A stretch of DNA of 64,000 bases from Gammaproteobacteria bacterium (GCA_029862165.1 JAOTXU010000017.1:2914-66913); one strand, 5' to 3'. Positions 5,286 to 64,000 are shown, numbered from the stretch's first letter. Translations and numbers: made by a program. The notes: generated by a model from the letters alone, not told the origin.

Positions 5286-7538
5286 CTACTCGATCGTCAC
5301 CGTCGCGTCGTCGGACGGATCCGGAGAAACCGGTGTCGTCTCATCGTCCTCAAGCTGGCCCGTCACGGTGTCCGTCACTGTTGCCGTGCCGTCCGGACTG
5401 TCGATCACCGCATCGAACGAGCAGGAAACTGAGTCGCCATTGCTAGCCGGGATGACTGTGTCCAATTCGTCACACGTATTATTGGAAATGTTGGGGTTGT
5501 TCGAGTCTAACAAGTCCCCATAGGGCGTGTCAGTGAGGCTGATCAACGTCAATGGATCCGTATCGACCGAAAGGTTGTCAATAGTCACCCGGTAACTAAC
5601 GACTGCCTTCGTCACGATCTTCGTCACTGCTGCCGCTGGGTCGACGTTGTTGAAGTTGACAGCCGCGACGTCCATTGCGCTTACGGGCACATTGTCATCG
5701 TCCACACCGGAGGCGGTTCCGGTATTGTCAATCATGTCACCCACGTTCCCTTCCACAGGCACCGTCACCGAACAGCTATACATGCCGCCGGGGGCCAACA
5801 CTACGGGGGGCGTGACTACGTCGCAGTCACCCTGACCCTGCAGATCCATTAGCACGTCGTCGGTCAAGCTGTCGATAGTCACCGTATCCACCGTAGAGGT
5901 GTTGGTGACCTTGTACGTGTAGGTAACGTTGCCACGTGGTTCATTAACACAACCTGGACCGTCGACGCTGCCCATATCATCGCACAGCGGTGTTACCGTC
6001 TTCAATAACGTGATCATCGACGGCACGTCCACCACGGTGATAAGTGCGGTGTCCATGACGGGGCCTACACTAATTCCGTCATCGTCCACACCGGAGGCGG
6101 TTCCCTCATTGGGAATCGTATCACCCGCGTTGCCAGTCAAAGCCACCGTCACGGAGCAGCTATACATGCCGCCAGCTGCCAACTCTACGGCCGGGGTTAC
6201 GTCACAGTCACCCTGACCATCCAGATCGAGGAGCTGGTCATCGGTCAAGCTGTCGATGAACACCGTATCCACGTCAGAGGTGTTAGTGACCTTGTACGTA
6301 TAGGTAACGTCGCCACCCGGTTCCAGAATTTCAGTCGGGTTTCCCGTGCAGTTCAGCGCGTCTGAGCAAGCGGCCGTCTTCATAATCGAAATCGACGACG
6401 GATCATTGAGAATGTCCACCGTAGCAGGATCGGATCCCGTTACAGTCCTACCCTCAGAATCGGTCCCGGAGACATTGACCGTATCGGTGATACTGTCTAG
6501 GTAATTCCCCGAAATGGCCCGTATGAACGTGCACGTCGTAAACTCGCCCGGGCCCAATAACAAATCCGGATCATCACAGGTTGACGATATATCTGTGACT
6601 ATCATCCCGTCACTCAATTCGTCGTCAAGAATGGAATCTAGTTGGACGTCAGCGAACGGCGATGGATTTGTGATTGTCACAGTAAACGTCGCGTCGCCAC
6701 CCGGCTCAACCAAACAACCTGGGCCGTCAACATCTCCCGCAGGATCGCACAGCGGTGTAACCGTCTTGAGCACGTCCAGCTGAGTGACTGGCACCTCGAT
6801 AGGCAGGGTGAAGCCTATGTCGCAACGGCACTTCGACGGTGATCCCGGAAAGGCATCGAGCGGGCTCGTGCAAAGCTCGTTTGCGCCAAACTGCCGCCAA
6901 CTCGTGCAGTTCGGCAGATTCAACAGGCCGTCACCATCCGGATCGATGCATTTTGTTGTCAATGTGATCGTTGGATTCAGCGGATTATGACCGGGCTTAT
7001 CGATGTCGCCGCAAGTGTCCTGAATCAGGCCATTCGGATCGTCATCCTTGCCATCAAGATCCAACCACGGTTGGTCCGGTGTGAAAGGCATCACCGTGAT
7101 AGCACATTGCCCGGTAAGGGCGCCGTCCATGTTGGGATCGCCATCGACCGCCCAGTAGATCCCAACGTCGTGCCGCCGTTTGGCGGTGGTTATAACGTCG
7201 AATGTCGCGATGAATGTCACGGTATCACCCGGAAAGGCGCAGCCACCGTCTGGGTCCAGGATCTCGATGTCAGGCACGCCCGGCATCCCGTCTTTGTCGG
7301 CAACGCCGGCAACCTGGATGTCATTGGCGTTACAATTAAGGTCCCCAGGAAATATGTCATCCATACACCCATTGATACAGGTAGCTGGGTCGGTTGGGTC
7401 TCCTGCACACATCGATTGCGCGTTCGCGGTTGGCACCGCTATTAACATAATAACGGGCAGCAGCACCGCGAAAATCACAGCCTGCCCGAGAGAGCGCAGC
7501 GCAACTTGTTGAATTGTAACTCGTTTAGTTGTTATCAT
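5286..7538 (-). CDS. Secreted Cys-rich protein with four tandem ~125-aa beta-sandwich-type repeats (DUF11 / conserved-repeat-domain-like)
   Basis: 750 aa. An N-terminal signal peptide (..VPTANA|QS) is followed by a ~210-aa Cys/Asp-rich region with DxDGD-like motifs. Then come four repeats, each carrying VTYTYKVTNTS / IDSLTDD / GQGDCDV / GGMYSCSVTV / GTASGVDDD-type strings. I did not recognise a C-terminal anchor. Confidence 0.6.
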   Translation of the reverse strand: MITTKRVTIQQVALRSLGQAVIFAVLLPVIMLIAVPTANAQSMCAGDPTDPATCINGCMDDIFPGDLNCNANDIQVAGVADKDGMPGVPDIEILDPDGGCAFPGDTVTFIATFDVITTAKRRHDVGIYWAVDGDPNMDGALTGQCAITVMPFTPDQPWLDLDGKDDDPNGLIQDTCGDIDKPGHNPLNPTITLTTKCIDPDGDGLLNLPNCTSWRQFGANELCTSPLDAFPGSPSKCRCDIGFTLPIEVPVTQLDVLKTVTPLCDPAGDVDGPGCLVEPGGDATFTVTITNPSPFADVQLDSILDDELSDGMIVTDISSTCDDPDLLLGPGEFTTCTFIRAISGNYLDSITDTVNVSGTDSEGRTVTGSDPATVDILNDPSSISIMKTAACSDALNCTGNPTEILEPGGDVTYTYKVTNTSDVDTVFIDSLTDDQLLDLDGQGDCDVTPAVELAAGGMYSCSVTVALTGNAGDTIPNEGTASGVDDDGISVGPVMDTALITVVDVPSMITLLKTVTPLCDDMGSVDGPGCVNEPRGNVTYTYKVTNTSTVDTVTIDSLTDDVLMDLQGQGDCDVVTPPVVLAPGGMYSCSVTVPVEGNVGDMIDNTGTASGVDDDNVPVSAMDVAAVNFNNVDPAAAVTKIVTKAVVSYRVTIDNLSVDTDPLTLISLTDTPYGDLLDSNNPNISNNTCDELDTVIPASNGDSVSCSFDAVIDSPDGTATVTDTVTGQLEDDETTPVSPDPSDDATVTIE
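5289..6779 (-). repeat. Intragenic tandem domain repeats; the two central units are near-identical with a 384-bp offset
   Basis: The string gtcatcgtccacaccggaggcggttcc occurs at 5694 and again at 6078, an offset of 384 bp (128 codons). Repeat boundaries fall at roughly aa 254, 379, 504 and 632. Confidence 0.8.
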
Positions 7539-46819: not shown

Positions 46820-47674
46820 CTATATGCGTCTGGCGGTAGTCACCCGGTCCAGCCTCGCGATATCAGCTTGGGTGACAATATTCGCATAGCCGGCGCCAGA
46901 TAATAATTCGCACACCGCAGCCGCCTGATCATGTCCATGCTCAAGTAACAACCAACCACCCGGGCGCAAACAGCGTGACGCCTGAGGAATGATTTGCCTG
47001 TAGGCGTCTAATCCATCTGTTCCACCGACCAGGGCGAGAGCAGGTTCGAACGCAACGCCGTCGCCTACGAGATGCTCATCGCCACATGCAATATAAGGTG
47101 GATTGCTAACAACGATATCGCTGCACTTGTTGCTAAGGCCGGTTAACCAGTCACACTGGACAAATTCAACGTTACTTTGCAATGCCAGCGCGTTGTTCTT
47201 TGCGACAGCCAAAGCCTCTGCACTGACATCTGTCGCGATCAACGACTTGTCACGAAGTTCGCTGGCCAGGGCCAGCGCGATGGCACCACAACCGGTGCCC
47301 AGATCGATAATTACTGACGCATCGGCCGCATGAGATAACGTGAGTTCTACCAGGTGCTCCGTTTCTGGTCGCGGCACAAGCGTGTGATTGTTGACCTGCA
47401 GGGTCAACGACCAGAAATCCCACTGGCCCCTAAGGTAGGCCAATGGTACGCCGCTAGCGCGGCGTTCGACGAGTTCGTCGAATAATTGGACCACATCGTC
47501 GTCGACTGACCTCTCCGGCCAGGTGTGTAACCAGCTACGTGTTTGTTGCGTGGCATATGTCAGCAACAATTCCGCATCCAGCCGGCTATTGTCCAGATGA
47601 GCAAGACGGGATTGCGCGCGCAACAACAATCCTGCGATCGAGGATAGGGTTGACTTTTCGGCACCTGATTTCAT
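46820..47674 (-). CDS. prmC: Release factor glutamine N5-methyltransferase (HemK/PrmC)
   Basis: PLAYLRGQWDFWSL.L.V....LVPRPETE, IDLGTGCGAIALA and the catalytic VSNPPY are present. I chose the start at ATG 47674; the longer track ORF overlaps the divergent CBS gene region. Confidence 0.8.
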   Translation of the reverse strand: MKSGAEKSTLSSIAGLLLRAQSRLAHLDNSRLDAELLLTYATQQTRSWLHTWPERSVDDDVVQLFDELVERRASGVPLAYLRGQWDFWSLTLQVNNHTLVPRPETEHLVELTLSHAADASVIIDLGTGCGAIALALASELRDKSLIATDVSAEALAVAKNNALALQSNVEFVQCDWLTGLSNKCSDIVVSNPPYIACGDEHLVGDGVAFEPALALVGGTDGLDAYRQIIPQASRCLRPGGWLLLEHGHDQAAAVCELLSGAGYANIVTQADIARLDRVTTARRI

Positions 47675-47772
47675 CTCGTGCCATGATAACGTCCCGCGCC
47701 GCGCCATGGGTGCGACGGCAGCGGATTTCCGGGCTAGAATTGGCTTCGCCCGGCGCCTTTGGAGTAGCCACG

Positions 47773-49167
47773 ATGACCGTCTATCGCAATGTGCTCGAAA
47801 TGATTGGCAACACACCGTTGCTCGAGTTGAGCCAAATGGACACCGGGCCCTGTCGATTGTTTGTCAAACTCGAACTTGCAAATCCAGGTGGATCAATCAA
47901 GGACCGTATCGGTGTTGCGATGATCGAAGCCGCAGAGAAACGCGGCGATATCAAATCAGGCGATACGTTGGTAGAGGCAACTGCCGGCAATACCGGTATC
48001 GGACTCGCCCTGGCGGCGGCACAAAAGGGTTATCGTCTCGTGTTGGTTATTCCGGACAAGATGAGCCAGGAAAAGATATTCAATCTGCGTGCGATGGGGG
48101 CGGAAATTATACTGACCCGATCGGATGTGGCGCGCGGGCATCCCGAGTATTACCAGGACCTGGCGAAGACCATCGCCGAACAAAATGCCGGCTATTACAT
48201 CAACCAGTTCGGCAACTCCGACAACCCGGATGCACACGAGGCAACAACTGCGCCCGAGGTATGGGAGCAGATGGGTCACGATCTCGATGCTGTCGTCGTC
48301 GGAGTCGGTACTTCCGGCACTGTGACCGGCCTGAGCCGGTATTTCAAAAAACACGCACCCGACGTCGAGATCGTTTTGGCCGACCCAAAGGGATCAGTGC
48401 TGGCCGATTACCTGGCGACCGGTAAGGTGGGGACCAGCAGTACGTGGCTGGTCGAGGGTATCGGTGAGGACTTTATCCCGGATATCGCCGACATGGACTC
48501 GATCTCAAGCGCCTTTACCATCAGCGACGATGAGTCATTCTCTACCGCGCGCGAGTTGCTGCGTTCCGAAGGACTGCTGGCCGGATCATCGACCGGTACA
48601 TTGCTTGCAGCAGCGCTGCGTTACTGCCGTGGACAGACGAAACCAAAACGCGTTCTGACTTTTGCATGCGATACAGGCAACAAGTATCTGTCAAAATTGT
48701 ACAACGACTTCTGGATGGAAGATCAGGGCTTTATCGAGCGCGAGCATTATGATGATCTTCGTGATTTGATCGGCCGCTTGCATGAGCAAGCCGCAACGGT
48801 CACGGTTGGGCCCGACGATACGTTGACCACGGCACACAACCGGTTGCGTAACGCCGGTTTCTCGCAACTACCAGTGATGGAATCAGGCGAACTGGTCGGC
48901 GTGTTAACTGAAGAGGATATTATGCGGGTTGCCTTCGGTAGTCCGGAACGGCTGCGTGACAACGTGCGTGGCGCCATGCAGACGGCTTTTCCCAGCGTTG
49001 AAAAAGATTTTGGCACCAAGAATCTGGTCGCACTGCTCAGCGGTGTGCCCTATACGGCGGTCATTGATGACGGGCAATTTCTTGGTTTGATTACGCGTTC
49101 TGATGTGCTCAACTATCTGCGCAAACAAATGCCGCCGGAACCGGGACCAGCGAGACAAAGCAAATGA
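47773..49167 (+). CDS. Cystathionine beta-synthase (CysK-fold PLP domain plus a tandem CBS pair)
   Basis: From ATG 47773 (GGAG at 47761) the product reads MTVYRNVLEMIGNTPLLEL..KLELANPGGSIKDRIG..EATAGNTGIGLA. The C-terminus carries two CBS motifs (..FSQLPVME.GELVGVLTEEDI.. and ..TAVIDDGQFLGLITRSDVL). Confidence 0.85.
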   Translation: MTVYRNVLEMIGNTPLLELSQMDTGPCRLFVKLELANPGGSIKDRIGVAMIEAAEKRGDIKSGDTLVEATAGNTGIGLALAAAQKGYRLVLVIPDKMSQEKIFNLRAMGAEIILTRSDVARGHPEYYQDLAKTIAEQNAGYYINQFGNSDNPDAHEATTAPEVWEQMGHDLDAVVVGVGTSGTVTGLSRYFKKHAPDVEIVLADPKGSVLADYLATGKVGTSSTWLVEGIGEDFIPDIADMDSISSAFTISDDESFSTARELLRSEGLLAGSSTGTLLAAALRYCRGQTKPKRVLTFACDTGNKYLSKLYNDFWMEDQGFIEREHYDDLRDLIGRLHEQAATVTVGPDDTLTTAHNRLRNAGFSQLPVMESGELVGVLTEEDIMRVAFGSPERLRDNVRGAMQTAFPSVEKDFGTKNLVALLSGVPYTAVIDDGQFLGLITRSDVLNYLRKQMPPEPGPARQSK

Positions 49168-50321
49168 GTAAAAACAAAAAGCAGGCGTTCGGTACACGAG
49201 TGATTCATGGCGGCCAGTCGCCGGATCCGCTGACCGGCGCCGTGATGCCGCCGATCTATGCGACTTCGACCTATGCACAAAAAAGTCCCGGTAAACACCA
49301 GGGATACGAATATTCACGCACGCAGAATCCTACTCGCATGGCCTACGAGCGTTGTGTAGCCAATCTCGAGAGTGGCTCGCACGGATTTGCGTTCGCGTCA
49401 GGGATGGCGGCGACCGCAACGGTCATGGAGCTTATTGATACCGGTAGCCATGTCGTAGCGATGGATGATCTTTATGGCGGTACTTTTCGGCTATTCGAGC
49501 GCGTCCGAAAGCGTTCCGCCGGTCTGGATTTCAGCTTCGTAGATATCAGCGAACAGGATTCGCTCGAACAAGCGATCCGACCGGAGACCCGGATGATCTG
49601 GATCGAAACACCGACCAACCCGATGTTGAAGTTGGTCGATCTGGAGATGGTTGCCACGGTTGCGCGGCAAAGAGGCATATTGACGGTTGCGGACAACACC
49701 TTCGCGACGCCCTACGTGCAACGCCCACTGGAACAGGGATTCGACATCGTTTTGCACTCGGCCACGAAATATCTCAACGGTCATTCGGACATGGTTGGTG
49801 GTGTGGTCGCGGTAGCAGACGATGGCTTGGCAGAGCAACTGGCTTTTCTGCAAAACTCGATCGGCGGCATTGCCGGACCATTTGACAGCTTTCTGGCGTT
49901 GCGTGGATTAAAGACTCTCGCTATACGGATGCAGCGTCATGGTGAGAACGGTCAGCAGATCGCTGAATACCTGCAAACCCATAAGAAGGTGGAACACGTC
50001 ATTTATCCTGGCCTGGATTCTCATCCACAACACGAGCTGGCGCAACAGCAGATGAACAGTTACACCGGCATGGTGTCGTTAGTTATCCAGGGCGGACTGC
50101 GCGAGGCAACTCAATTCCTGGAGAGACTTGAAACGTTCACGCTGGCGGAGAGTTTGGGCGGAGTCGAAAGTCTGGCAAATCACCCGGCGATCATGACACA
50201 CGCGTCGGTACCGGAGGATAAACGGACGCAGTTGGGCATCGACGATAATTTGGTCCGTCTGTCGGCTGGCATCGAGGAGTGTGCCGACCTGATTGCCGAC
50301 ATAGAAAACGCGCTCTCGTGA
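49164..50321 (+). CDS. Cystathionine gamma-lyase / Cys-Met metabolism PLP enzyme
   Basis: GTRVIHGG..P..GAV.PPIY.TSTY, the PLP-lysine region SATKYLNGHSD and GGVESL..HPA.MTHAS are present. Its ATGA overlaps the CBS stop. Confidence 0.88.
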   Translation: MSKNKKQAFGTRVIHGGQSPDPLTGAVMPPIYATSTYAQKSPGKHQGYEYSRTQNPTRMAYERCVANLESGSHGFAFASGMAATATVMELIDTGSHVVAMDDLYGGTFRLFERVRKRSAGLDFSFVDISEQDSLEQAIRPETRMIWIETPTNPMLKLVDLEMVATVARQRGILTVADNTFATPYVQRPLEQGFDIVLHSATKYLNGHSDMVGGVVAVADDGLAEQLAFLQNSIGGIAGPFDSFLALRGLKTLAIRMQRHGENGQQIAEYLQTHKKVEHVIYPGLDSHPQHELAQQQMNSYTGMVSLVIQGGLREATQFLERLETFTLAESLGGVESLANHPAIMTHASVPEDKRTQLGIDDNLVRLSAGIEECADLIADIENALS

Positions 50322-57912: not shown

Positions 57913-58575
57913 ATGTCAACAAAAGCCAATTTTCTGGACGCCGAACTGTATGACTATCTGCTGTCGGTATCAGTGTACGAGGATGAACTGCTCACTCAGC
58001 TGCGCGAGGAGACTGCCCAACTGCCCATGTCAGTAATGCAGATTGCACCGGACCAGGGGCAGTTCATGGCATTGCTTATACGTCTGATGGGTGTGCGCGC
58101 GGCAATCGAGGTGGGGGTGTTCACTGGGTACAGCAGTTTGTGCATCGCGCGTGCGTTGCCTGCGGACGGCCGCCTGTTGTGCTGTGATGTTAGCGAGGAG
58201 TGGACCGCCATCGCGCGGCGCTATTGGGATGCCGCCGGCGTGGCCGAGCGGATCGAGCTCGTACTCGCGCCGGCGTCGGAGACTTTGCGCTCACGGATCG
58301 AGGCCGGCGATGCGGGGCGCTACGACTTTGCCTTCATCGATGCGGACAAAGAGTCCTACGACGACTATTTTGAATGTTGCCTCGAACTGCTGCGCCCTGG
58401 CGGGTTGATGCTGTTCGACAACGTCCTGTGGTCGGGCCGGGTAATGAGAGCCGCTGAAGAAGACGCCGAAACGCAGGCGCTACATGCATTTAATGTAAAG
58501 CTCCATGGTGACGAGCGCGTGGACATCAGCTTACTGCCGGTAGCGGATGGCTTGTTTCTCGCGCGCAAACGCTGA
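57913..58575 (+). CDS. Class I SAM-dependent O-methyltransferase (caffeoyl-CoA OMT / Methyltransf_3 family)
   Basis: 220 aa. PDQGQFMALLIRLMG....IEVGVFTGYSSL..A.ALP.DG.L..CD......A..YW..AG...RIEL..APA..TL and FDF.FIDADK..Y..Y.E.CL.LLRPGG....DNVLW.G.V are present. Confidence 0.85.
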   Translation: MSTKANFLDAELYDYLLSVSVYEDELLTQLREETAQLPMSVMQIAPDQGQFMALLIRLMGVRAAIEVGVFTGYSSLCIARALPADGRLLCCDVSEEWTAIARRYWDAAGVAERIELVLAPASETLRSRIEAGDAGRYDFAFIDADKESYDDYFECCLELLRPGGLMLFDNVLWSGRVMRAAEEDAETQALHAFNVKLHGDERVDISLLPVADGLFLARKR

Positions 58576-58598
58576 CAGAGCTTGATTATTAACGTCAG
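58487..58598 (+). repeat. Direct repeat, copy 1: the last ~29 codons plus stop of the OMT gene and a downstream TTAACGTCAG motif
   Basis: 58487-58575 matches 62885-62973 at 87 of 89 positions, an offset of 4398 bp. The only mismatches are 58494-58495. TTAACGTCAG recurs at 58589-58598 and 62978-62987. Confidence 0.95.
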
Positions 58599-58676
58599 AC
58601 CGGCAGAAGTTGCCTGGAAAAACCAATGGGGCGATTGCTGCCGAGCGGAGATCTGGAGAGCGACGTGAAGGACTCT

Positions 58677-59144
58677 TTATTCTGCTTGCTGCTCGCGGTT
58701 GCTGGCAGCCCAGGCAGTGGCGGTATCGAAACACTCGAAGGACTCTATTTGGAGTCCAACGTTTTTAGCGCTGACCATAAAAAAGCCAAGATAGTTTCGC
58801 AGACCACCGGACATCACGATGGCGATTCGGTGGCTGCGAAGCTGGCGTCTTTCGTCGGTATGCAAGGCCAGTAAATATGCGTCGATCTCGGTCAGATCAC
58901 CGCTTGCCGAACGCGCGTCGATAACGGAAGGGCAGCCCAGGCGATCCAGTTCGTCCACCAGCATGACCCAATCGTTCAGGGTCGAATGCTGACCGCCACA
59001 GGTGACTATCACAATATTTTTGTCGTGCCTGATATTCAAAGTGTTGAATTCCTGATTAAGCGCCCGGCTCGGCAAGTCGGCTTTGCACCTCAGGAAGGTT
59101 CGGCATCCCTGCCGAAACCCGGAAAACCCAAGCCTAAGATCCAT
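58677..59144 (-). CDS. Hypothetical protein (155 aa), possibly a STAS/SpoIIAA-like fold
   Basis: The ORF lies downstream of the response-regulator gene on the same strand. The pattern ..NIVIVTCGGQHSTLNDWVMLVDELDRLG.PSVIDARSASGDLTEID...LA.....R.L...RIAIVMSG..... ..IESFECFDTATAWA loosely recalls STAS-type domains. The assignment is tentative. Confidence 0.35.
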   Translation of the reverse strand: MDLRLGFSGFRQGCRTFLRCKADLPSRALNQEFNTLNIRHDKNIVIVTCGGQHSTLNDWVMLVDELDRLGCPSVIDARSASGDLTEIDAYLLALHTDERRQLRSHRIAIVMSGGLRNYLGFFMVSAKNVGLQIESFECFDTATAWAASNREQQAE

Positions 59145-59286
59145 CTAGACCATGTCTATTTAACGGCCTTGCAGCGCAATAAACTATCCGTACGGCTGCC
59201 TAGGTAGGGTTGCCTATATTGCTTCAAGCGGCCCGGATATTCCGCTGCAGCAGGGTTTTGGTCCGGGCCGGGACGCCTGTTGTGGC

Positions 59287-59940
59287 TTATTGGGCCTCGG
59301 ACTCGAGTTCCACCAGGCCGGCCCAGCTGGCCAGCCGTGCCAGCTCGGTCACTGAACGGGCCCGGGTTTTTTCCATGATGTGTGTGCGGTGATGATCGAT
59401 CGTGCGATGACTGATGCCCAACTCGGCAGCAATCTGTTTGCTGGATGCGGTGGCTGCACCGGCAATCATCAAGCGCATCACCTCTTGCTCGCGCTCGGTC
59501 AGGGAGTCGAAGCGTGCCAGCAGCGCTTGCCGGTATTTCTGTTGGGCGCGTAGCGCGGAGTCTGCGGCCAAAGCTCGATTAATGCGTTCGAGCAACGCGT
59601 CTATGCCAAAGGGCTTTTCGAGAAAGTCGATCGCCCCGGCTTTGATTGCCCGCACCGATTGCGGGATGTCGCCCTGACCTGTGATAAATATGATTGGAAT
59701 ACTGACCGCTGATTTCACCAGCTCCTGCTGCAGTTCCAGGCCAGTCATGCCGGGCAAGCTCACATCCAGCAACAGACAACCGGGTTCTTCGGCATTGTAA
59801 TAGTCCAGGAAGGCTTGCGCCGATTCGAAGGCTTGCATTCCAAACCCGCGCTCTGACAGCGCGCTGGCTAACCAGCGTCTGATTCCGACGTCATCGTCGA
59901 CCAGAAATATTGTTGGTTGTTGCGTCTCGATGTTGTCCAT
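59287..59940 (-). CDS. Two-component response regulator, FixJ/NarL type (REC plus LuxR-family HTH)
   Basis: The REC domain reads TIFLVDDD..LLLDVSLPGMTGLELQ..IIFITGQGD...V.A.KAGA.DFLEKPF. The HTH reads LTEREQEVM.L...G...SKQIA.ELGIS.RTI..HR..IM.K. The start is ATG 59940. Confidence 0.9.
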   Translation of the reverse strand: MDNIETQQPTIFLVDDDVGIRRWLASALSERGFGMQAFESAQAFLDYYNAEEPGCLLLDVSLPGMTGLELQQELVKSAVSIPIIFITGQGDIPQSVRAIKAGAIDFLEKPFGIDALLERINRALAADSALRAQQKYRQALLARFDSLTEREQEVMRLMIAGAATASSKQIAAELGISHRTIDHHRTHIMEKTRARSVTELARLASWAGLVELESEAQ

Positions 59941-59978
59941 TTTCACCGGCAGCAATCTTATGGTCCATCAGTGGGCCT

Positions 59979-60000
59979 GGTTAATACTCCTATATTAATC
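59979..60000. promoter_or_regulatory. Inverted repeat in the divergent regulator / binding-protein promoter region
   Basis: GGTTAATA-ctccta-TATTAATC pairs at 7 of 8 positions. It lies 39 bp upstream of the response-regulator start and is a candidate LuxR-type box. Sequence symmetry is the only support. Confidence 0.25.
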
Positions 60001-60142
60001 ACGTACGATCAATCGGCAAATCCCTACATCCACCGCTTGTATTTGAAATATTCGCGGCATCCGCGCTTACGAGCACATAGATGCGCTTCATCAACCGTTC
60101 GTCAGGATGTAGAATCACAAACTAGGTCGCGGTTTGGCTTAG

Positions 60143-61015
60143 ATGAAAATCCTGACACTAATTCTTGCGATGACTGTTTGCGCGTGCGCGAACGACGACG
60201 ATCGTAAGTCGTCAGCGCCCGACGTAATCACGATTGGCGTTCTTCCAGACCAAAACAAATCCGACTTGACAAGGCGTTACGCCCCGCTAATGGATTATCT
60301 GGAAACAGAGACCGGCCTTGATATAGTGCTCTCGATACCATCGGACTACGAAGAATTTCTCGACGAGTTCAATGCCGGTCACTTGCAGCTTGCCAATTTC
60401 GGCGGAATGACGTTTATCCAGGCCGAGCAAAAAAGTCAGGCCGTACCACTCGTCATGCGTGATATAGATTTGCAGTTTACGAGCTGCTATATCATTAATG
60501 CGTCCGATGGTCGACGCTCAGTCGCGGAATTCGAAGGTGAAGTGTTTTCATTTGGACCGAATCTGTCAACATCCGGGCACATCATGCCGCGATATTTTCT
60601 CATCACGGGTGGAATCGTGCCCGAACGCTTCTTTTCATCGGTACAGTATTCCTCAGGTCACGACCAGACAGCTAAATGGGTAAGCGACGAAATAGTGGCC
60701 ATAGGCGTCGCAAACTGCGACATCGTTCAATCCATGTTTGATGATGGTCGCTTGAGTACGGCCAAGCTTCGTATCCTGGAAACAACGCCTCCCTACCCAA
60801 ACTACGTGTGGGCAACACAAGCATCGCTCGATCTTTCCTTGAAGCATCTGCTCAGAGATGCTTTTCTCGGGCTTGACTTGACGAATCCAATGCATCTCCC
60901 GTTACTGAAAGCGCAAGGAGCCGGCGGCTACCTGCCGGCGGGCAGGGACGATTTTGAGGACATACGCGCCGCAGTACGCGAGCTTGCTTCGCTCGTTCAG
61001 AGTGATCCCAATTGA
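60143..61015 (+). CDS. PhnD-like (phosphonate ABC-type) periplasmic substrate-binding lipoprotein
   Basis: A signal with Cys (LAMTVCAC) is followed by ITIGVLPDQN...L.RRYAPL.DYLE..TGL.I.L....DY.EF...F..G.L.LANFGG..F, then FG.NLSTSGH.MPR.F and YSSGHDQTA..V....VAIG.AN. There is no adjacent ABC permease or ATPase. Its stop overlaps the kinase start. Confidence 0.75.
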   Translation: MKILTLILAMTVCACANDDDRKSSAPDVITIGVLPDQNKSDLTRRYAPLMDYLETETGLDIVLSIPSDYEEFLDEFNAGHLQLANFGGMTFIQAEQKSQAVPLVMRDIDLQFTSCYIINASDGRRSVAEFEGEVFSFGPNLSTSGHIMPRYFLITGGIVPERFFSSVQYSSGHDQTAKWVSDEIVAIGVANCDIVQSMFDDGRLSTAKLRILETTPPYPNYVWATQASLDLSLKHLLRDAFLGLDLTNPMHLPLLKAQGAGGYLPAGRDDFEDIRAAVRELASLVQSDPN

Positions 61016-62811
61016 ATAAGACGTCGGACAAATACAAAAGTGTACTGCGATATGTCTATGCGCTGACGGCCATCATGGTTATTGCTGCCACCGCGCTCTT
61101 AACCACGCTTTATACCGGCCAGCACGCTGAACTGGCGGCACAAGATCGCATCGCGTTCTATCATTTGGCGTCCTCGGCGGCGTCACAACAGTTGCGTAGA
61201 GACACCCGATCCATCAACCTTGTGCTTCAAGCCGCCGCAAACACGACTGAGACAGCCGCAGGCGGTTTTTCACTTACGGCTCGTGTCAGTGCCGCGCTGC
61301 ACTCGATGCAGGCTGACCTTATTAAGTTGCGCGAGCTGCAGGAACAATACGCCGATTACCAATTTTCCTCGACACTCGGACGGCTGACAGAGCGCTTCGG
61401 CGCTATCATGCACTTACACACTGAGGCCTCAATGGATCCATTGTTAGAGTCCGTCGAGGCCTTCGAGTTGAATATTGAGCAGCTGCGCCGACTCCACATG
61501 ATCGCTGCCGCAAATGAGTTGGCCAGCATCGAAGCCCAGGCACGTCGCGTCCTGCCAAACATGGCGATCCTCATGGCAATATTGATTGTTACATGCGTTG
61601 TTGGGTGGTACGTGACTCGATTGTTGCGAGAATCACTCGTTAATCAGAAGCGGGCTGAAGAAGCGCTGGCTGCAAGCGTGGAGCGCATGCATCATATGCA
61701 AAAACTCGAAGCGCTCGGACAGCTCGTCGGTGGCGTTGCTCACGACTTCAATAATCTGCTAACCGCGATTCTGGGCCAGGCTAGCCTCCTTGAAGACAAA
61801 TCGTCCAGGGACGAGCCCATGCGACAGGGTCTGAGCGAGATCAGCCGGGCTGCGGAGCAGGCGGCATTACTGACAAAACAACTTCTGACGTTCAGCCGAC
61901 GCCAGCCTATCGAACCAAAGATCGTCGACCTGAACAATTTGATCCGCGATATGGAACCAATATTGCGTCGACTGATCGGCGAAGATATTAAACTAACGGT
62001 TCGCTGCGACGATACTCAAAATACGATCGAACTGGATCCGGGGCAGTTTCATCAGGTCATCCTTAATCTGGCTGTCAACTCTCGTGATGCGTTGCCGGAT
62101 GGCGGCGAGATCTTGCTTACAGCGGAGCACGTGCAAATTGACTCGGATGACCACAGACGTGGCGACATGGTTAATGGCCGGTATGCCAAACTCGCCGTTA
62201 TCGACAATGGCGTCGGCATGGATAAAAAGACGCTTGACCGGGCATTCGAGCCGTTCTTCACGACCAAGCAGAAGGGGCGCGGCACGGGTCTCGGACTGGC
62301 AACAGTACACGGAATCATCACCGCGGCGAATGGTCACATTTTCGTCGACAGCAATCCCGAGAAAGGCACTTGCTTTGAGATCTATTTGCCGAGCTCTACG
62401 CGCTACGCCGAAAAGGTCGCCGCCGATTCGGTGTCAGAGCTAGCTGGGTCTGAAACTGTCCTGGTCGTAGAGGACGAGGAACAGATCCGGACATTGTTGC
62501 AGGGCGGATTAGGTTCTCTGGGCTACAGGGTACTGACGGCCTCGGGTGGAACCGAAGGGCTCGAGATCTGCGGAAGCCGGGCTGAGTCTATTGATGCGAT
62601 CGTCTCGGACGTTGTCATGCCGGACATGAACGGGGCAGCCTTCATGAAAGACGCCCTGGATATGCGGCCTGATGCCGTTGGGATCTATATGTCCGGCTAT
62701 ACCGACGACATCGTGCTGCAAACGGGGGTCGGCGGATCGGCGATTCCACTGATCAATAAGCCTTTTGAGCTTGATGAACTTGCGAGACTCATACGAGACC
62801 GACTGAACTAG
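61012..62811 (+). CDS. Hybrid sensor histidine kinase (2 TM, ~140-aa periplasmic domain, HisKA, HATPase_c, C-terminal REC)
   Basis: The H-box reads GGVAHDFNNLLTAILG. The N/G boxes read NLAVNSRDA and DNGVGMD..FEPFFTTK..G.GTGLGL. The receiver reads VLVVEDEE......L...GY.VL.A....E......IDAIVSDVVMP.MNG. The TTG start overlaps the PhnD-like stop. Confidence 0.88.
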   Translation: MNKTSDKYKSVLRYVYALTAIMVIAATALLTTLYTGQHAELAAQDRIAFYHLASSAASQQLRRDTRSINLVLQAAANTTETAAGGFSLTARVSAALHSMQADLIKLRELQEQYADYQFSSTLGRLTERFGAIMHLHTEASMDPLLESVEAFELNIEQLRRLHMIAAANELASIEAQARRVLPNMAILMAILIVTCVVGWYVTRLLRESLVNQKRAEEALAASVERMHHMQKLEALGQLVGGVAHDFNNLLTAILGQASLLEDKSSRDEPMRQGLSEISRAAEQAALLTKQLLTFSRRQPIEPKIVDLNNLIRDMEPILRRLIGEDIKLTVRCDDTQNTIELDPGQFHQVILNLAVNSRDALPDGGEILLTAEHVQIDSDDHRRGDMVNGRYAKLAVIDNGVGMDKKTLDRAFEPFFTTKQKGRGTGLGLATVHGIITAANGHIFVDSNPEKGTCFEIYLPSSTRYAEKVAADSVSELAGSETVLVVEDEEQIRTLLQGGLGSLGYRVLTASGGTEGLEICGSRAESIDAIVSDVVMPDMNGAAFMKDALDMRPDAVGIYMSGYTDDIVLQTGVGGSAIPLINKPFELDELARLIRDRLN

Positions 62812-62836
62812 TTTTCTTTTGAATGGAGATCCAGAC

Positions 62837-62884
62837 TTATTGCCCTTCGGTAATTTCTTCCAGCCAGGCAGCGAAGGCGACGTC
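62837..62884 (-). pseudogene. Orphan 3' fragment (15 codons plus stop) of a cysteine-synthase-like gene
   Basis: 62828-62884 aligns to 63672-63728, the true 3' end of the gene at the right edge, with 5 mismatches in 57 nt. It encodes ..DVAFAAWLEEITEGQ* against ..DVAVPAWLEETTEGQ*. It has no 5' part and abuts the OMT fragment at 62884/62885. Confidence 0.9.
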
Positions 62885-62987
62885 CATTTAACTTAAAGCT
62901 CCATGGTGACGAGCGCGTGGACATCAGCTTACTGCCGGTAGCGGATGGCTTGTTTCTCGCGCGCAAACGCTGATTTTTTAACGTCAG
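62885..62987 (+). pseudogene. Orphan 3' fragment of the O-methyltransferase gene (direct repeat, copy 2)
   Basis: It is identical to 58496-58575 across the last ~27 codons and the stop, and it carries the TTAACGTCAG motif. It has no 5' part and starts exactly where the cysteine-synthase fragment ends. Confidence 0.9.
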
Positions 62988-63197
62988 CTTTCCAGGGATG
63001 ACTGGCAGGAGTTGGTCGATTGCGCAATCCGGCAATCGTGGCTGTGAGCCGCTCCCAGGGGAGATTACAACCGTCCGATTGTGGCCGGTCGGCGCCTTCC
63101 GAAAAGACGGTCGAAATTTGAATAAACCCGAGGTCTCGTCTACTCTTTGGCAGAGTGCCGCATGGTCGGCATTGGCAAGAACGAGGAAGCTTCAGTG

Positions 63198-63593
63198 ATG
63201 AACTCAAAGATAATAGCCTTCGCATTTGTTGCATGCATGCTATCCAGCTGCGCCACTACTGCGGAACAAGACGGACATGAGGCCGCTAAACGTGTCAACG
63301 CAGCCCAAAGCGAGAAGATGGTTAGCATGGAAAATGACGCTTCCGACGCCGACGCAAACGGCGATGAGGCCGCTCAACAAGATGTCAACGCAGCACAAAG
63401 CGAGAAGACGGTTAGCACGGAAAATGAGGCTTACGAAGACAAAGTCAGGTGTCGGAGGATCGCAAAAACCGGCACACGGCTTGGAACCAAAGTATGTGCC
63501 ACGAATCGTCAATGGAAGGAGTCCGCGGAGAGCGCGGAGCGAACTACGGAGGAGTTGAAACGGCGGCCACAACATGGACGTGACGCAGGCTGA
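63198..63593 (+). CDS. Small lipoprotein with an internal tandem repeat and a conserved-looking Cys-pair C-terminus
   Basis: The ATG at 63198 follows GAGGAA. A lipobox is present (MLSSC). Two ~29-aa repeats read EAA...VNAAQSEK.VS.EN. The C-terminus reads KVRCRRIAKTGTRLGTKVCATNRQW. Confidence 0.65.
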   Translation: MNSKIIAFAFVACMLSSCATTAEQDGHEAAKRVNAAQSEKMVSMENDASDADANGDEAAQQDVNAAQSEKTVSTENEAYEDKVRCRRIAKTGTRLGTKVCATNRQWKESAESAERTTEELKRRPQHGRDAG

Positions 63594-63628
63594 CGTACAT
63601 CCACGCCCACCTCGCTGGTGCCTACGAC

Positions 63629-63650
63629 AAACGGCAGGTTGTTGCCGTTT
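63629..63650. terminator. Hairpin between the convergent lipoprotein and cysteine-synthase-like genes
   Basis: AAACGGCA-ggttgt-TGCCGTTT forms an 8-bp stem. The U-tracts are weak on both strands. Confidence 0.4.
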
Positions 63651-63680
63651 ACAGGCGTTCGTGCGCAAACGGATCTAGAC

Positions 63681-64000
63681 TTATTGTCCTTCGGTAGTTT
63701 CTTCCAGCCAGGCAGGGACGGCGACGTCTTTTTCTTTTAGGAATTCCGGATTGTAGAGACGTTGCAGGTAACGCAGACCGGTGTCGCAGAGAACTGTGAC
63801 GATTGTATGTCCCGGCCCCAGTTCGCGTGCCAGGCGAATCGCGCCGGCGACATTAACGCCACTGGAGCCGCCCAGACAAAACCCCTCGTCGCGTAAAAGA
63901 GAAAAAACGATAGGAATGGATTCACTATCGGGAATCTGATACGGAAAATCGACGTTGACACCCTCAAGATTTCCCGTTACACGGCTGTTGCCGATGCCTT
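63681..64000 (-). CDS. PLP-dependent cysteine synthase / CBS-family enzyme. Only the 3' part is present; the gene continues past the right edge.
   Basis: It is missing from the ORF track because the edge truncates it. My minus-strand translation ends ..GIGNSRVTGNLEGVNVDFPYQIPDSESIPIVFSLLRDEGFCLGGSSGVNVAGAIRLARELGPGHTIVTVLCDTGLRYLQRLYNPEFLKEKDVAVPAWLEETTEGQ*, with the stop at 63681-63683. The GGSSG and LCD.G.RY motifs are typical of the CysK/CysM fold. Confidence 0.8.
   Translation of the reverse strand, partial: GIGNSRVTGNLEGVNVDFPYQIPDSESIPIVFSLLRDEGFCLGGSSGVNVAGAIRLARELGPGHTIVTVLCDTGLRYLQRLYNPEFLKEKDVAVPAWLEETTEGQ

Follow-up and report, generated by a model that had tools for sequence, protein, structure and literature searches.

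Two unrelated gene cassettes in tandem between an O-methyltransferase gene and cysK, divided by fused copies of both gene ends

Described systems and the present locus

Spontaneous tandem duplications with a microhomology join point, of the type described by Reams and Roth, carry an end-to-start joint between identical units and leave the outer genes intact. Cassettes can also be stacked by a site-specific recombinase, as in the arrays of integrative and conjugative elements (ICEs) and cis-mobilizable elements (CIMEs) at fda of Streptococcus thermophilus and the composites of the staphylococcal cassette chromosome (SCC) at rlmH, in which one attachment site (att) is present three times. The locus that we describe here lies at the end of a 64,000-nt stretch of DNA from an uncultured Gammaproteobacteria bacterium (GCA_029862165.1, JAOTXU010000017.1:2914-66913); this whole stretch is called the window, and all coordinates are positions in it unless a contig is named. 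It holds two unrelated cassettes, X and Y, one behind the other between an O-methyltransferase (OMT) gene and the cysteine synthase A gene (cysK), and between the cassettes a copy of the cysK 3' end (c') is fused directly to a copy of the OMT 3' end (a'). Our favoured reading, to which we give a probability of roughly 45%, is the additive capture of a second allele of this interval from a close relative.

Models of gene-content change without integrases mostly invoke double-crossover replacement at flanking core genes (PMC5635113). The minimal mobile elements and the hotspots free of mobile genetic elements (MGE-free hotspots) carry no mobility genes and vary between conserved flanks among close relatives (PMC3787668; PMC5635113). 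In homology-facilitated illegitimate recombination (HFIR), one homologous anchor and one illegitimate joint bring in non-homologous DNA without mobile-element functions, typically with deletion of recipient DNA of a size similar to the insert and with joints at 3-10 bp of microhomology (PMC3240628). During E. coli conjugation, single crossovers of circles missing part of the homologous segment give target duplications of 109-950 bp, and these outnumber HFIR proper (PMC3240628).

Along the end of the window the order is OMT gene, cassette X, a 160-nt spacer made of c' and a', cassette Y and the 3' part of cysK, with the following features:

57913-58575, plus strand: OMT gene, intact, 220 aa, caffeoyl-CoA OMT-like (PF01596, E = 4.5e-70, full-length match)
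58487-58598, plus strand: repeat a, the OMT 3' end (final 89 nt) with the next 23 nt, ending in TTAACGTCAG; possible decayed extension to 58612
58599-62827, no strand: cassette X, 4229 nt, a signalling module of four genes
62828-62884, minus strand: c', orphan copy of the cysK 3' end (final 15 codons, stop and 9 nt downstream), 52/57 identical to c
62884..62885, no strand: the c'-a' joint, an apparent illegitimate join, c-like up to 62884 and a-like from 62885
62885-62987, plus strand: a', orphan copy of the OMT 3' end (final 89 nt) with the next 14 nt, ending in TTAACGTCAG
62988-63671, no strand: cassette Y, 684 nt, with one lipoprotein gene
63672-63728, minus strand: repeat c, the genuine cysK 3' end and 9-11 nt downstream
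63683-64000, minus strand: 3' part of cysK, which continues past the window; the parent contig (L001) has the gene intact (339 aa)

Both ends of the unit are repeated, and the joint runs from the end of one unit to the start of the next (a...c'-a'...c). A preliminary description of this DNA had taken the order a-X-c'-a'-Y-c as the product expected of a single homologous crossover, and our analysis supports a duplication-type joint: the structure has every feature of such a joint except identity of the units. In a simple tandem duplication the units are copies of each other, whereas here their cassettes are unrelated and differ in length (4.2 kb and 0.7 kb). Insertion-duplication of the Campbell type (the single-crossover, or SCO, class) likewise leaves a partial duplication of the locus on either side of the added DNA and uses host recombination only, but its known cases are laboratory constructs or plasmids, while here a natural chromosomal fragment with a different cassette would have closed on itself illegitimately into a putative circle. 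HFIR and homology-directed illegitimate recombination (HDIR), known from naturally transformable bacteria, usually delete recipient sequence, which is instead duplicated here (a/a' and c'/c); HFIR joints show 3-10 bp of microhomology, and at the present joint c and a overlap exactly by no more than 1 nt, inside a patchy match at 8/13 positions (P ~0.006, chosen post hoc).

Minimal mobile elements and MGE-free hotspots have in common with this locus unrelated cassettes that are tightly bounded by gene ends, and no mobility genes. They replace cassettes, however, whereas here one appears to have been added, and their conserved flank pair has no counterpart, the OMT-cysK pair being found in no relative among those available (at most 85% identity). 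Accretion of ICE/CIME and SCC elements also gives stacked cassettes split by copies of a gene 3' end; in the present case no recombinase was found in X, in Y or within about 10 kb, and the spacer fuses both flank ends. An integron cassette array, with its IntI, attI and attC, differs in that we found no integrase within about 10 kb and no Rfam element, and the spacer consists of coding-sequence fragments. The locus is a natural instance of a kind of event already known from laboratory work, a duplication-type rearrangement without an integrase, and a well-preserved scar of the apparent additive gain of a cassette.

The joint and its repeats

When all 64 kb were compared with themselves by BLAST, a/a' (E = 1e-37) and c'/c (E = 2e-15) were the sole dispersed repeats. 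Three other matches were internal repeats (two in a gene at ~5.7-6.8 kb and one in Y), and no further copy of either the a or the c repeat was present elsewhere in the window. The copies a (58487-58575), which encodes the last 29 residues of OMT, and a' (62885-62973) are identical at 87 of 89 positions, the two mismatches being neighbours at 62892-62893, close to the joint. Downstream, both copies share TTAACGTCAG (58589-58598 and 62978-62987). The post-stop region has 10 additional bases in a relative to a', and the alignment beyond the stop codon passes an indel of 10 nt, a single substitution and what is probably an indel of 13 nt before it reaches a 12/14 match (58599-58612 against 63001-63014), a probable 14-nt extension of the repeat, ACCGGCAGAAGTTG. 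Differences are thus confined to the edges (62892-62893 and the post-stop indels), and the core of 80 nt is without any mismatch. We also weighed a palindromic 'empty site', GTCAGGATCCAGAC, as a target of recombination, and gave it up since the homology of a seems to extend beyond TTAACGTCAG. At the other end of the unit, c' (62828-62884) and c (63672-63728), the latter encoding the last 15 residues of CysK, agree at 52 of 57 positions; their mismatches (62832, 62843, 62853, 62872 and 62875) are spread evenly, and the longest unbroken match is 18 nt. The coordinates, the shared downstream sequence and the counts of the preliminary description (87/89 for a/a', 5/57 differing for c/c') were correct to the base, and self-comparison confirmed that c' and a' are fused without a spacer at 62884/62885.

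Read in register around the joint, c and a have the same base at 8 of 13 positions (GC.AC.T...TTT; P ~0.006 for a stretch chosen post hoc), with an exact overlap of no more than 1 nt, and c'-a' is best described as an illegitimate join with patchy microhomology only. In the cysK frame, c' carries one synonymous and three non-synonymous changes relative to c, and encodes DVAFAAWLEEITEGQ before the stop where c encodes DVAVPAWLEETTEGQ. It has Phe-Ala at the Val-Pro of c (Val328, Pro329), and Pro329 is invariant across 69 aligned CysK homologues (66-85% identity). Given the Ala at this invariant position, c' is unlikely to be a faithful copy of a functional allele and has probably decayed since the event. 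The c'-a' joint had been called a molecular fossil, and the junction itself is real, but the Ala at a Pro invariant in 69 homologues means that c' offers no clean snapshot of a donor. The divergence of a' (2/89) does not differ significantly from that of c' (5/57; Fisher P = 0.11).

The window belongs to a MEGAHIT contig of 107 kb (ERZ28013244 k141_746385) from a short-read metagenome assembly, and further contigs were retrieved by exact-protein look-ups from ERZ27296365, ERZ27296363, JGI 3300022202 (the same as NCBI metagenome-assembled genome GCA_029861255.1) and Logan SRR7132272. These contigs match the window at 99.98-100% identity. We compared the joint in four assemblies from three pipelines, as assembled contigs rather than raw reads: the segment 62744-63025 (the joint ±~140 nt) is unchanged in ERZ27296365, ERZ27296363, JGI 3300022202/GCA_029861255.1 and the source ERZ28013244. 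A fifth assembly, Logan SRR7132272, reaches 39 nt across the joint; its contigs end at 62923 and start at 62944, which is where a 31-mer graph has to split on meeting an 80-nt two-copy repeat. The preliminary description had advised a check for chimeric assembly, and with the joint reproduced unchanged in four assemblies the junction holds; to judge from these contigs, it is real and not an assembly product.

Cassettes, flanking genes and relatives

The five genes of the two cassettes are as follows:

58677-59039, minus strand: X gene 1, predicted STAS/SpoIIAA-fold protein, ~120 aa, TTG start at 59039 (mechanical open reading frame, ORF, to 59144)
59287-59955, minus strand: X gene 2, FixJ/LuxR-type response regulator (PF00072 and PF00196; NF006900 FixJ at 191 bits, under the cutoff)
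60143-61015, plus strand: X gene 3, PhnD-like periplasmic binding protein (PBP; PF12974, E = 9e-55; TIGR01098 above the cutoff)
61012-62811, plus strand: X gene 4, hybrid histidine kinase (HK) with a receiver domain (HisKA, HATPase_c, Response_reg)
63198-63593, plus strand: Y gene, lipoprotein, 131 aa, signal peptide ...CMLSSC, with an internal 87-90-nt repeat

X gene 1, an unannotated ORF of 155 aa, had no match in Pfam, PHROGs or NCBIfam. An exhaustive HMMER search gave 18 homologues of ~112-165 aa (one an 87-aa fragment) that start at MNIR, and with 18 matches among 1.8 billion representatives this STAS-like family of ~115 aa is rare. The AlphaFold model made with this alignment (pLDDT, the predicted local distance difference test, 92.7) was matched by Foldseek to 2q3l (DUF3478, SpoIIAA-like), 8ih8, 4xs5 and other anti-sigma antagonists, and the protein models as STAS/SpoIIAA-like. 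The homologues and the predicted fold together ruled it out as a hidden recombinase. Gene calls conflict at 58599-59286, where the source annotation has two plus-strand ORFs (82 and 73 aa) and the conserved gene is on the minus strand. As a separate observation on X, four other assemblies all stop inside the part of the response regulator gene that codes for its helix-turn-helix (59430-59613); in one contig (L005) 106 nt of unrelated GC-rich sequence (1-106) precede the match to the window, which begins at 59480, and the only single-nucleotide difference, at 59515 (T>G), is in the JGI contig. A tangled assembly graph at a conserved domain, or differences between strains within X, are possible causes.

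The Y gene contains an internal tandem repeat at 63271-63436 (~87-90 nt, 85-91% identical). Its lipoprotein has only one distant homologue, P0242, among 5.8 billion proteins searched, with which it has the C-terminal motif CRRI.(K/Q)TGTRLGTKVCATNRQW in common. Self-BLAST and a hidden-homology search found no similarity between X and Y beyond the shared flank, the sole exception being the probable 14-nt extension of a. A 13/14 match directly before c was judged to be chance, its partner on the X side lying 103 nt inside the HK gene. Although unrelated, X and Y share their boundaries on the flanks, which is what one would expect of alternative occupants of a single site. A comparison of composition with the core genome had also been suggested: GC, GC at third codon positions (GC3) and codon usage of X fall inside or near the range of the window's other genes, with the PBP gene ~2 standard deviations low, so that foreign composition of X as a sign of a donor was set aside, and Y is atypical, though it comprises 131 codons only.

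Nothing recombinase-like lies in or near the cassettes. Among the X and Y genes, all assigned or modelled through Pfam, NCBIfam, PHROGs or AlphaFold/Foldseek, there is no recombinase, and the precomputed annotation gives no Pfam family of integrases, resolvases or transposases in called genes for ~10 kb on either side (the neighbours on the cysK side are prfA, hemA, lolB and prs). The window lacks tRNA genes, the region and its spacers contain no Rfam or other structured RNA element, and scans for terminator and promoter consensus sequences stayed at background level. Plasmid searches gave no match besides the conserved receiver domain, and a plasmid origin was rejected on that ground. The earlier statement that no integrase, transposase or tRNA is nearby held up, with all six genes assigned or modelled.

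The outer copies of both flanking genes stay intact. CysK scores 528 bits against NF007989 (cutoff 387), and prfA and hemA follow cysK beyond the window. Its C-terminal extension of ~6 residues (EETTEGQ; window 63683-63728 and L001 15769-16788) belongs to a tail, EE[T/I]TEGQ, that is present in c and c' and missing from all 9 full-length relatives read (73-85% identical), which points to an origin of c' in the same narrow lineage. About 10 kb upstream of the locus (47539-50321) lie genes for a CBS-domain PALP enzyme and a pyridoxal-phosphate (PLP) enzyme of Cys/Met metabolism, a transsulfuration-type pair, so that, with cysK, the locus has sulfur-amino-acid genes to its left and right. This second PALP gene was ruled out as the source of c', its 3' end having no repeat match. 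Elsewhere in the window, a minus-strand gene of 750 aa (5286-7538) has internal repeats at 5694-6767 (5694-5942 against 6078-6323 at 81.5%, with a weaker third copy).

In the collections searched, the nearest relatives are 81% identical in OMT and 85% in CysK. Every contig with the exact OMT, HK or Y protein has the stacked form: those with OMT enter X (the identical OMT protein is on three contigs, each running on into X), and those with Y, where long enough, carry HK-c'-a' upstream. When JGI metagenome contigs were scanned at the DNA level for any degenerate sequence encoding the cysK tail (AWLEE[T/I]TEGQ and stop), nothing came back and the known JGI contig was missed too, so that this collection is evidently without such short contigs. 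At 80 GTDB loci with OMT homologues (54-69%) there was no synteny with cysK, prfA or hemA, and in five contigs of closer relatives OMT lies among different genes (the OMT relatives examined include P0002, P0003, P0006 and P0011). Neighbours also differ in the CysK relatives P0121, P0122, P0124 and P0125; the 85% relative keeps prfA-cysK, followed by an unrelated convergent gene, and in the 82% relative both sides differ. The PBP-HK pair recurs at 48-63% identity in three loci (L097-L099) with unrelated contexts, not beside OMT or cysK. With OMT and cysK adjacent in no relative examined, the picture of a variable islet between conserved convergent genes, drawn in the preliminary description, was not borne out. 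Nor did the comparison it proposed, for strains carrying X only or Y only, yield such an allele: only the stacked form appeared, next to relatives no nearer than 81% in OMT and 85% in CysK.

Origin of the tandem arrangement

The capture of a second allele from a close relative is the most economical reading, being the route with the fewest events. Two versions of one interval (OMT 3' end, cassette, cysK 3' end) would have come to sit in tandem. One DNA end would have been joined without homology, the cysK end of the first unit to the OMT end of the second, giving c'-a', and one homologous exchange would have occurred in the OMT end (or in that of cysK, if the mirror image applies). In one order of events a donor fragment would circularise and then integrate by a Campbell-type single crossover; in the other one end of a linear fragment would be held by homology while its second end was joined illegitimately. 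Both orders have laboratory precedents and would leave the same product, and sequence alone cannot separate them. Host recombination functions would suffice in either case. Later gene conversion may have kept the 80-nt a/a' core identical while the diverged edges remained, and the c'/c pair, its longest identical run 18 nt, would have drifted apart. The position of the a/a' differences at the edges of an identical core fits an exchange or conversion within the core, and since both outer genes are intact, the event would have been neutral for OMT and cysK.

As to which unit is the older, both 81% OMT relatives have a small co-directional lipoprotein gene directly after OMT (L178 1171-1266; L091 10587-11000), not Y-like in sequence, just as Y follows a'. 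This is a weak hint that a'-Y(-c) is the resident unit and X with c' the newcomer.

The preliminary description had put forward one version of this reading, a circularised fragment integrated by a single crossover. The type of joint fits that proposal, and there is documented precedent for it (PMC3240628), but a single crossover alone leaves the 80-nt a/a' identity with differing edges unexplained. Crossing over once does not homogenise the copies, and conversion of the a/a' core must therefore be added.

Several points weigh against capture of a foreign allele. We found no X-only, Y-only, donor-type or conspecific variant allele in any of the protein, genome and metagenome databases searched. 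The OMT and cysK genes are neighbours in no relative examined (OMT 69-81%, CysK 82-85%), and there is no independent sign of a recurrent exchange site. At a unit divergence of 5-9%, the chance of 0 differences in the 78-nt a/a' test stretch is only P 0.02-0.0008; identity of the core is thus improbable, and the gene conversion that would account for it is an additional step. The Ala of c' at the invariant Pro329, together with Phe at Val328, means either decay, and so an old event, or an odd donor allele. The host-like composition of X neither helps nor hurts a donor that is a close relative.

Nearly as likely is an internal tandem duplication followed by divergence, which we hold to be possible though short of probable. 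By unequal illegitimate exchange between sister chromosomes, a unit starting 89 nt within OMT and ending 57 nt within cysK would have been duplicated at a time when the interval consisted of a-Y-c (0.85 kb) or of ~0.2 kb of almost empty spacer, and the difference between the units would stem from later cassette replacement or from separate insertions of X and Y. This would leave the same joint signature, and short duplications that keep both genes intact are neutral. The decay of c' (Pro329Ala; three non-synonymous changes to one synonymous) fits an old relic better than a fresh donor allele, the divergence of a' and c', not significantly different (Fisher P = 0.11), is compatible with it, and no donor lineage was seen in the collections searched. 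More events are needed, however. The replacement path takes two crossovers, with a right arm of 57 nt only, and still requires a foreign X allele; the insertion path takes two independent insertions at the identical base, with no insertion machinery or target-site duplication; and X and Y show no residual similarity beyond the shared flank. The tandem duplication with later replacement that the preliminary description had offered as its alternative consequently fits the joint and the decayed c' at the cost of more steps. Two related schemes were rejected: a tandem duplication of an a-X-Y-c unit, which needs two precise deletions, and a target-site-duplication model, which predicts the same segment on either side of one insert.

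Site-specific accretion is improbable. Here X with c' (or a' with Y) would be a non-autonomous element, bringing a substitute gene end with it, inserted at the OMT or cysK 3' end by an integrase acting in trans, as in CIME/ICE or SCC arrays. Direct repeats drawn from a gene 3' end, with the gene kept intact, are indeed what many end-targeting integrases leave, but X, Y and ~10 kb around them hold no integrase or recombinase and the window no additional repeat copy. Accretion also predicts three copies of one att, whereas two different repeats are present in two copies each, with the two flank ends fused in the middle piece; both repeats are long stretches of coding sequence, and homology stops at ordinary gene-end boundaries. 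An assembly chimera of X-bearing and Y-bearing strain variants is less probable still: although the source is a short-read MEGAHIT k141 metagenome assembly and contigs of other assemblies break within X at 59430-59613, a strain-variant bubble gives no c-to-a edge, so that the joint needs reads containing it, the joint ±~140 nt is identical in four assemblies (three pipelines) with Logan crossing by 39 nt, and the Logan contigs stop and resume (62923, 62944) as expected of a genuine two-copy repeat of 80 nt.

A broader and decidedly speculative interpretation is that the locus is a natural 'heterozygous' tandem of two alternative alleles, made without a dedicated recombinase, and that islets generally grow in this overlooked additive way and are sorted afterwards, instead of undergoing one-for-one replacement. 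If so, recombination between c' and c would give an X-only chromosome, and recombination between a and a' a Y-only one.

As a single clonal example without comparators, the locus is an illustrative case and establishes no new principle. Its preserved c'-a' joint represents the additive alternative in a wild uncultured bacterium, and is a scar that can be dated. Systematic discovery of such scars could give a count of how often islets grow by one illegitimate join and one homologous exchange.

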